DNA of 64,000 nucleotides. It comes from Malacoraja senta (Eukaryota). The stretch lies in contig CM075996.1 of NCBI GenBank assembly GCA_038087875.1, forward strand, positions 2,792,001-2,856,000. The letters run 5' to 3'. Below are positions 4,674 through 5,268 of the stretch, one piece after another; the first letter of the stretch is position 1, and the number at the start of each line of letters is the position of its first letter. The translations under genes were made by a program, and so were the position numbers. Below the pieces are notes generated by a model, which did not search any database, was not told where the DNA came from, and saw only the letters and a list, made by a program, of their open reading frames with translations.

Positions 4674-5268
4674 GGTAGACAAAAATGCTGGAGAATCTCA
4701 GCGGGTGAGGCAGCATCTATGGAGCGAAGGAAATAGGTGACGTTTCGGGTCGAGACCCTTCTTCAGACTGATGTGGGGGTGGGAGGGGGGAAGAAGAAAG
4801 GAAGAGGCGGAGACAGTGGGCTGTGGGAGAGCTGGGAAGGGGAGGGGAAGGAGGGAGAAAGATTCAAGATTCAAGTGAGTCTATTGTCATATGTCCCTGA
4901 TAGGACAATGAAATTCTTGTTTTGCTTCAGCACAACAGAATATAGTAGGCATTGACTACAGAACAGATCAGTGTGTCCATGTACCATTATATAAATATAT
5001 ACACACATGAATAAATAAACTGATAAAGTACAAATAACAGATAATGGGCGATTAATGTTAAGTGTTATGTCCGAGCCAAGTTTAATAGCCTGATGGCTGT
5101 GGGGAAGTAGCTATTCCTGAACCTGGTCGTTGCAGTCTTCAGGCTCCTGTACCTTCTACCTGAAGGGAGCAGGGACTACCTGAAATTGGAGAAGTCAATG
5201 TTCATACCGCTGGGGTGTAAACTACCCAAGCGAAATATGAGGTGCTGCTCCTCCAATTTGCGGCGGGA
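4674..5268 (-). mobile_element. Penelope-like element 3' end (GIY-YIG C-terminus, pyrimidine tract, hammerhead motif), split by a LINE tail at about 4861-5168
   Basis: 5268-5176 reads [58 protein letters not shown] follows on the same strand at 4766-4739. Confidence 0.8.
4736..4769 (-). ncRNA. Putative minimal type I hammerhead ribozyme motif (PLE-type)
   Basis: AGT-CTGAAGA-A-GGGTC-TC-GACCC-GAAAC-GTC-ACC: CUGANGA core, stem II, GAAA, palindromic ACGT, GUC triplet; activity not shown. Confidence 0.65.

Follow-up and report, generated by a model that had tools for sequence, protein, structure and literature searches.

Minimal hammerhead motifs at the 3' end of a truncated Penelope-like retrotransposon family in the skate Malacoraja senta, probably inert in the introns of TMEM184B

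Our results make it quite probable that a hammerhead motif found in an intron of TMEM184B in Malacoraja senta is a minimal hammerhead that ends a Penelope-like retrotransposon at its 3' side, that this family occupies about 36 sites in 46 kb as truncated copies likely undergoing neutral decay, and that these copies likely do not cut host RNA. The window, that is, the whole stretch of DNA analyzed here, comprises 64,000 nt of contig CM075996.1 (assembly GCA_038087875.1, positions 2,792,001 to 2,856,000). Positions given below are those of the window, and the features are collected in Table 1.

Read directly, the minus strand at positions 4766 to 4739 is CTGAAGA-A-GGGT-CTCG-ACCC-GAAA-CG-TC. This copy matches the hammerhead core (CUGANGA, GAAA, and UH) exactly, and has both the unpaired base between A9 and 10.1 and the G10.1-C11.1 pair. 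The minimal type I layout that had been proposed from the letters, with a palindromic ACGU at 15.2-16.2 replacing helix III, is seen here. Stem II had been taken to be 5 bp capped by a 2-nt loop; a loop of 2 nt is not plausible, and 4 bp capped by a 4-nt loop is the better reading. Helices of 2 bp (I) and 4 bp (II) are at the short end of the range described for minimal hammerheads. That such a motif recurs is real: in the whole window, a 28-letter pattern gave 12 matches with three mismatches or fewer, compared with none in 100 shuffles, and the strict pattern gave 4. Position 10.1/11.1 is G-C in 13 of 18 aligned copies and the palindromic pair is C-G in 10 of 18, with losses of ACGU mainly of the CpG-decay type. 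In the per-copy table, every catalytic letter is kept in 10 of the 23 motif-spanning arms, and the core, a 4-bp stem II, the ACGU palindrome, and a 2-bp stem I are retained together in 3 of 23. Six copies had been regarded as intact by the sequence-only reading. Their catalytic letters are indeed preserved in all six, but the stems are damaged in three: the G10.1-C11.1 pair is gone from the copy at 1989(-), stem II carries a mismatch and stem I is reduced to 1 bp in the copy at 38215(-), and stem I is a single base pair adjoining the core in the copy at 26731(+). The six copies regarded as mutated were all recovered in the per-copy analysis. Rfam gave no hammerhead match at the gathering score in the window, and its E-value mode on 4640 to 4900 returned one chance-level lncRNA match and no hammerhead.

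The supposed Penelope-like origin was shown physically at the copy at 4737 to 4768. The end of the element ORF, the 3' untranslated region (UTR), and the motif are all bracketed by one target duplication, as is the case for a terminal repeat downstream of a Penelope-like element (PLE) ORF. The insertion, running from 5274 to 4676, begins 22 nt inside a TMEM184B intron, and the stop codon of the ORF end is at 5178 to 5176 on the minus strand. The degree of match in the duplication (12/14) was reached by 32 of 1,500 random junction pairs. The 3' UTR is split by the nested LINE fragment, which we take to be Rex1/Babar-like. In all three UTR-bearing copies, TCAGT stands just before the core, a sequence that is initiator-like and acceptor-like too.

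Table 1. Features of the window, grouped by locus (strand relative to the window; C3, first letter of the core)
Feature	Position	Strand	Evidence or remark
Whole 5'-truncated Penelope-like insertion, tail-less	4676..5274	-	target duplication 12/14
Target-site duplication, upstream copy	5275..5288	.	12/14 match to 4662-4675
Last 32 codons and stop of element RT-GIY-YIG ORF	5176..5274	-	similarity to ORF ends of relatives
Nested later 3' fragment of another LINE	4864..5166	-	76.5% over 307 columns to 8253-8541
Pyrimidine-rich 3' UTR	4769..4863	-	TCAGT directly before core
Minimal type I hammerhead motif	4737..4768	-	sequence and per-copy table
Stem I, 5' strand	4768-4767	-	
Core CUGAAGA	4766-4760	-	extra A at 4759
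Stem II	4758-4755/4750-4747	-	4-nt loop
GAAA	4746-4743	-	
ACGU palindrome	4743-4740	-	
C17	4739	-	predicted cut 4739/4738
Pseudo-LTR (pLTR) body downstream of cut site	4676..4736	-	alignment; ends at inner (tail-less) 3' end
Target-site duplication, downstream copy	4662..4675	.	pairs with 5275-5288
Complete motifs	C3 at 4766, 11972, 39158	-, -, +	per-copy table
TMEM184B coding span, eight exons mapped	1644..23147	-	98% to batoid TMEM184B proteins; exon map
Decayed tandem array, hammerhead-only units of ~45 nt	1959..2255	-	period 45, 5.7 copies, 66% matches
LINE-insertion duplication inside Penelope copy	11529-11562 and 11872-11905		33/34 bases, unusually long
Head-to-head pair	11871..12068	.	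minus arm has complete motif (C3 11972)
Four tandem 66-nt units of the repeat	17873-18159	-	start at GAAA, without 5' half of core
Open 339-codon RT fragment	27988-29004	+	RVT_1 and ALKBH8_N matches; adjoins tail of Penelope pair
Head-to-head pair	38124..38296	.	13/15 target duplication
99-bp solo copy, complete motif (C3 39158)	39153..39251	+	perfect 12-bp target duplication
Inverted pair of 374 nt, 98% complementary	46001-46374 and 53140-53513		young LINE end
228-codon open frame	46099-46785		at inverted LINE pair
Open frames resembling exons of another gene	47159-47539, 57559-57924	-	
Second Penelope ORF end	52888-52962	-	cut off early in UTR; no hammerhead behind

The element ORF is represented in the window by its final 32 codons, and its clade is judged from relatives. 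The peptide of the ORF end is identical at 16/30 residues to the ORF end of zebra shark model P0022 and matches skate models P0015 and P0005 at 79 to 86%. Relatives P0023 and P0024 exceed the Pfam cutoff for RVT_1 and fall just below it for GIY-YIG (16.9 to 21.8 bits versus 22.6 bits). A CX4CxxC-type linker is seen in P0015, P0022, P0023, and P0024, in a region that is absent from the window; passages of Craig 2021 (PMC8557442) give a CX2-5CxxC linker between RT and EN for Neptune and Nematis. The element probably belongs to the Neptune clade. Model P0022 reads through RT, GIY-YIG, and a pyrimidine-rich UTR and ends in SLMKGLRPKRQ, and the motif in our window translates to SLKKGLDPKRH in the frame that matches this end. 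The read-through thus links the ORF with a related motif in a second species; the end of P0022 encodes U at N7, with the stem letters unreadable from the protein. A Pfam search with the 38-residue ORF end found no families, and metagenome scans yielded neither a match to 32 letters of the repeat nor, with P0005 as query, a relative; P0005 is a poor query in that it is a receptor model fused to a Penelope end. The proteins ranked highest for the ORF end (P0001 to P0004 and P0013) are repetitive and were set aside as chance matches. As a separate observation, the public skate and shark gene models P0032 (TMEM184B-like of little skate), P0005 (neuromedin-U receptor 1 of Rhinoraja longicauda), and P0022 run into Penelope ends, a probable case of annotation contamination.

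A profile made from the window copies collected 49 pieces, and 57 rows after the tail and part of the UTR had been added, of which one was misaligned and was removed. The remaining 56 pieces correspond to 36 loci and 4,585 bases, approximately 10% of the first 46 kb, in agreement with the high local copy number assumed before. The repeat had also been thought to extend across the window, which is not the case: 48 pieces precede the assembly gap at 41,879 to 42,078, the 8 others lie past it but no further than position 46,000, and 46,001 to 64,000 is free of the repeat. Past the gap, G+C falls from about 50% to about 41%. The repeat-free, G+C-poor part may reflect either a domain boundary or an assembly join.

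Twelve head-to-head pairs are present in the window. A tail of about 40 nt is attached to exactly one arm in 9 of them, to both arms in 1, and to neither in 2. Among nine junctions examined closely, chosen from the 36 loci where the flanks or an earlier screen had hinted at a duplication, target duplications are 10 to 15 bp at seven and 6 bp at two. Solo copies of 87 to 99 bp have clean target duplications, and the one at 39153 begins just upstream of the core. In the pair at 38124, the arm that reaches the core is tail-less and the short arm has the tail. The plus arm of the pair at 11871 (11953 to 12068) is the only one whose start coincides with the predicted cut site. It belongs to another subfamily than its partner (45/60 identical), the overlap at their junction consists of stem I letters, and this single arm possibly arose from a cleaved template. 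A later LINE piece, flanked by the 33/34 duplication, separated the 11972 arm from its tail, and the pair to which this arm belongs is the one with both tails. The tandem array of 45-nt units precedes a tailed copy (1857 to 1996); none of its four aligned units displays the full set of hammerhead criteria, and the remaining units are more decayed. The 66-nt tandem units lie just downstream of a TMEM184B exon.

The mapped exons agree with the earlier view that the minus strand encodes TMEM184B and that its introns hold sense copies. Batoid proteins named TMEM184B share 98% identity with the exon at 18,287 to 18,451, and the first mapped exon has 96% identity to the little skate protein, compared with 72% for sawfish; the eight mapped exons run from 23,147 down to 1,644 and include no 5' UTR exon. 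The copy at 4737 to 4768 lies in the intron after the exon ending near 5,297. Little skate model P0032 passes from this same exon into the same Penelope piece (16/21 residues). This model is probably a misprediction, but it suggests that the insertion is shared with little skate, in which case it appears to be old and tolerated. Sense copies are not depleted in the coding span, where copies spanning the motif number 8 in sense and 5 in antisense orientation; with all pieces counted, the numbers are 18 sense and 7 antisense (P = 0.043 towards sense, a value inflated by the two tandem arrays). Only 2 of the 8 sense copies are complete, and these are 7.2 kb apart in different introns.

How far has the motif been under constraint? 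Among non-CpG core letters, 19 of 279 cells differ from the majority letter, compared with 290 of 2,264 in the 3' body (P = 0.003). Core divergence is no lower than that of the low-variant columns of the 3' body (122/1,697; P = 0.9), although these columns were selected for low variation, which biases against detecting core conservation. As the core varies less than the 3' body overall but not less than its low-variant columns, we interpret this as constraint that acted on the source elements and was absent once copies had inserted. The variants that mark subfamilies are located in the loop, at N7, and at H17 or are U-A to U-G changes, and avoid the core. Covariation in the stems, the check that the sequence-only reading had looked to, does not exceed that in shuffles here: one two-sided change was found versus 2.1 in shuffles, among 18 of the 23 spanning copies, which come from a single window, are closely related to one another, and have decayed. 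Predicted folding of the monomer is no better than that of shuffles (z = 0.95). For 39-nt pieces, the active dimer is predicted at -6.1 to -6.7 kcal/mol versus -21 to -32 kcal/mol for the best alternative pairing, which leaves it 15 to 25 kcal/mol above other folds, a gap that widens with flanking sequence; the folding models leave out tertiary contacts and protein.

These data bear on two readings of the motif that differ from ours. The absence of compensatory covariation, the 2-bp stem I, and the poor predicted folding would all be expected if the motif were vestigial even in source elements, its fit to the hammerhead core being inherited and without present function. We regard this as quite unlikely, given that subfamily-marking variants spare the core and that the core-coding letters are preserved in the zebra shark read-through. 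We give hardly any credence to the idea that intronic sense copies cleave themselves, as monomers or dimers, and thereby affect the splicing or level of TMEM184B. It could point to the two complete sense motifs in introns of the coding span, to the distance of about 530 nt between the 4737 to 4768 copy and the upstream donor, and to the decayed sense array in the last mapped intron. Against it, helix III is impossible in a monomer, whose folding is unremarkable, and the active dimer (-6 to -7 kcal/mol) is predicted to be far less stable than the alternatives; sense copies are undepleted, and the insertion that little skate appears to share seems to be old and tolerated. In addition, published minimal hammerheads cut poorly even as dimers according to passages of PMC4209133, and eight of nine Xenopus dimers were uncut in the portion of Li 2026 (bioRxiv 10.64898/2026.07.22.740005) that deals with them. 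The notion that minus-strand copies might cleave the TMEM184B pre-mRNA is therefore not upheld, with few complete copies, no depletion, no covariation, and an unfavorable predicted dimer. If intronic copies did cut, a repeat that makes up about 10% of a 46-kb stretch would matter for host splicing; the evidence is against this, and the copy at 4737 to 4768 and the others are most likely inert in TMEM184B.

The 5' ends of the copies are informative with respect to the templates from which they were made. We analyzed 50 arms, after 7 rows (inner units of the two tandem arrays and one internal piece) had been dropped or merged; 4 of the ends, those of three UTR copies and one arm, were set by hand. 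Of the 17 independent arms that reach the core, 3 run into the UTR, whereas the other 14 have their ends at -5 to +1, counted from C3. This concentration has a P value of about 2e-14 against the truncation rate elsewhere (about 1% per base). Of the 34 arms that reach the cut site, 1 begins no more than 2 nt away from it, where 1.7 are expected. With ends at the core and almost none at the cut, most templates should have been uncleaved RNAs that included the motif on both sides of the cut and terminated immediately ahead of it. The boundary ends are at -3 or shorter in 12 of 14 cases, the upstream flanks of the 14 copies show no relation to the C-rich UTR, and target duplications directly abut the 5' ends at 7727 and 39158. 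The initiator consensus is YYANWYY, and TCAGT fits it with its A at -3.

Based on these ends, we tentatively consider a model in which short copies are strong-stop-like run-off cDNAs, pairs result from two primings on two uncleaved RNAs, and ACGU serves mainly to pair templates for a dimeric RT-endonuclease, with cutting secondary. The initiator-like TCAGT, roughly 3 nt before the core, would likely be where RNA of the element starts. Taken with the findings on the anole element, the most economical account is run-off after internal priming close to the 5' end of the RNA. Priming of the RT about 95 or 135 nt further down, with extension running off the 5' end of the RNA, would yield the abundant copies of 100 to 140 bp, which hold both motif halves and whose templates were thus uncleaved. 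Cleavage by the motif in source elements would require a dimer joined through ACGU and, by analogy with the anole element, would probably need the protein of the element. A run-off start just upstream of the core would also account for the 2-bp stem I. On the other side, passages of PMC2377424 and PMC4209133 place the start site of Drosophila virilis Penelope more than 100 nt upstream of the hammerhead, which counts against this model. Non-templated cap G residues at the 5' ends were considered and discarded, as the upstream letters at 7727 belong to the target duplication and one case was left. A bacterial promoter scan found nothing, though it is unsuited to a question on eukaryotic start sites.

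The same boundary could arise in other ways. The short copies may constitute a nonautonomous, SINE-like mini-element, so that the boundary reflects masters that begin at the core. Clean target duplications on solo copies of 87 to 99 bp, the excess of short over UTR-bearing copies (14 versus 3), and the nonautonomous pLTR derivatives described in a section of Li 2026 (bioRxiv 10.64898/2026.07.22.740005) all speak for this. However, the boundary is common to several variants of the repeat, which would need several masters with an identical start; no common upstream flank has been carried along; and a master still requires a start of its own at this point, which makes this partly the same model. 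We consider it a possible but doubtful explanation. A splice acceptor (a pyrimidine tract with CAG before TCTG), or stalling of the RT at the beginning of the C-rich UTR, is unlikely to have set the boundary. The UTR is indeed a pyrimidine tract that ends in CAG in all three copies, and an intron of D. virilis ends at helix I in the corresponding passage of PMC4209133. Nevertheless, 9 of the 14 ends still match over 1 to 4 nt on the upstream side of the would-be junction, the copies share no upstream exon, target duplications abut the ends at 7727 and 39158, and the stops come before the start of the C-rich tract.

For the head-to-head pairs, the run-off model would have both target strands primed separately, one from each start site, although this part is the weaker one. 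In all three informative asymmetric pairs the tail is on the shorter arm and the longer arm is tail-less, which indicates, for these three pairs, that neither arm was copied from the other and favors two primings over fold-back. Fold-back of a single cDNA was rejected on the grounds that it predicts a tail on the 5'-complete arm, the opposite of what the three pairs display; one more pair was uninformative, and one had tails on both arms. Self-priming on an antisense template, proposed in a passage of Arkhipova 2013 (PMC3846280), may be compatible with the pair data. If the model is true, a genome full of copies of this kind would pinpoint, to the single base, where the RNA of a Neptune element starts and where its two RT start sites lie.

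Minimal hammerheads in the pLTRs of metazoan Penelope-like elements were described by Cervera and De la Pena in 2014 (PMC4209133), and sections of that paper report them in Xena, Poseidon, and Neptune elements of fishes, coelacanth, and Xenopus; its main-text passages do not name skates. Our copies resemble those described there in the core, the extra base after A9, the G10.1-C11.1 pair, the palindromic 15.2-16.2, the lack of a helix III loop, the position in the pLTR, and the large numbers of mostly solo truncated copies. They differ in helix sizes: stem II has 4 bp here compared with 7 to 8 in schistosome families and 6 in D. virilis, and stem I has 2 bp compared with 4 to 5 in schistosomes and 2 in D. 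virilis (tabulated portions of PMC4209133). The family is a skate addition to the Penelope minimal hammerheads, a class known since 2014, and changes little as a ribozyme find. Shark or skate motifs may be listed in the supplements of Cervera and Li. Passages of PMC8557442 and PMC3846280 describe, for EN+ Penelope-like elements including Neptune, the same 5' truncation, adjacent inverted truncated copy, one-end tail of 30 to 40 bp, and target duplications of about 10 to 15 bp, as well as the order of RT and GIY-YIG in the ORF and the cysteine linker, which are here found in relatives; the window differs in having no full ORF. A sharp 5' boundary just before the hammerhead, as seen here, was not found in those passages. 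No publication that deals with this skate family or describes a boundary at the core turned up in our search, with most subscription journals outside its scope.

The closest parallel in terms of mechanism is the Poseidon element of Anolis carolinensis, for which sections of Frangieh 2024 (PMC11167929) report that RT starts at two internal sites, that both strands are cut and extended, that the main template is uncleaved RNA, and that the hammerhead depends on protein. Like that element, the skate family has two 3' ends that define the tail, copies of uncleaved RNA, and a lack of ends at the cut site. The anole element belongs to another clade, and in the passages of PMC11167929 its ORF starts at stem II and its template extends more than 100 nt upstream of stem II, whereas most copies here stop 0 to 5 nt before the core. 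The array of 45-nt units resembles the non-LTR retrozymes in being a pLTR-derived run of hammerhead units. It falls outside the definition in the text of Li 2026 (at least two consecutive complete hammerheads), its unit of about 45 nt is below the range of 51 to 972 bp given there, and the rest of the family is dispersed and not tandem. Retrozymes and PLEs were found in the one chondrichthyan included in the relevant part of Li 2026 (bioRxiv 10.64898/2026.07.22.740005). The role of the hammerhead in the Penelope cycle is described as still open in passages of Craig 2021 (PMC8557442) and Frangieh 2024 (PMC11167929). Copy ends, with their sharp start, scarcity at the cut, and one-sided tails, provide a cheap genome-wide test of whether cleaved RNAs served as templates. 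The pattern also informs how inverted insertions form and can be used on any skate assembly.

Other repeats are present in the window. An abundant SINE, represented by families D9, D11, D12, D17, and D18, has a tRNA-like head by eye; ARAGORN called no tRNA in the window and is a tool unsuited to the hammerhead question. The young LINE end of the 374-nt inverted pair is presumably CR1-like.
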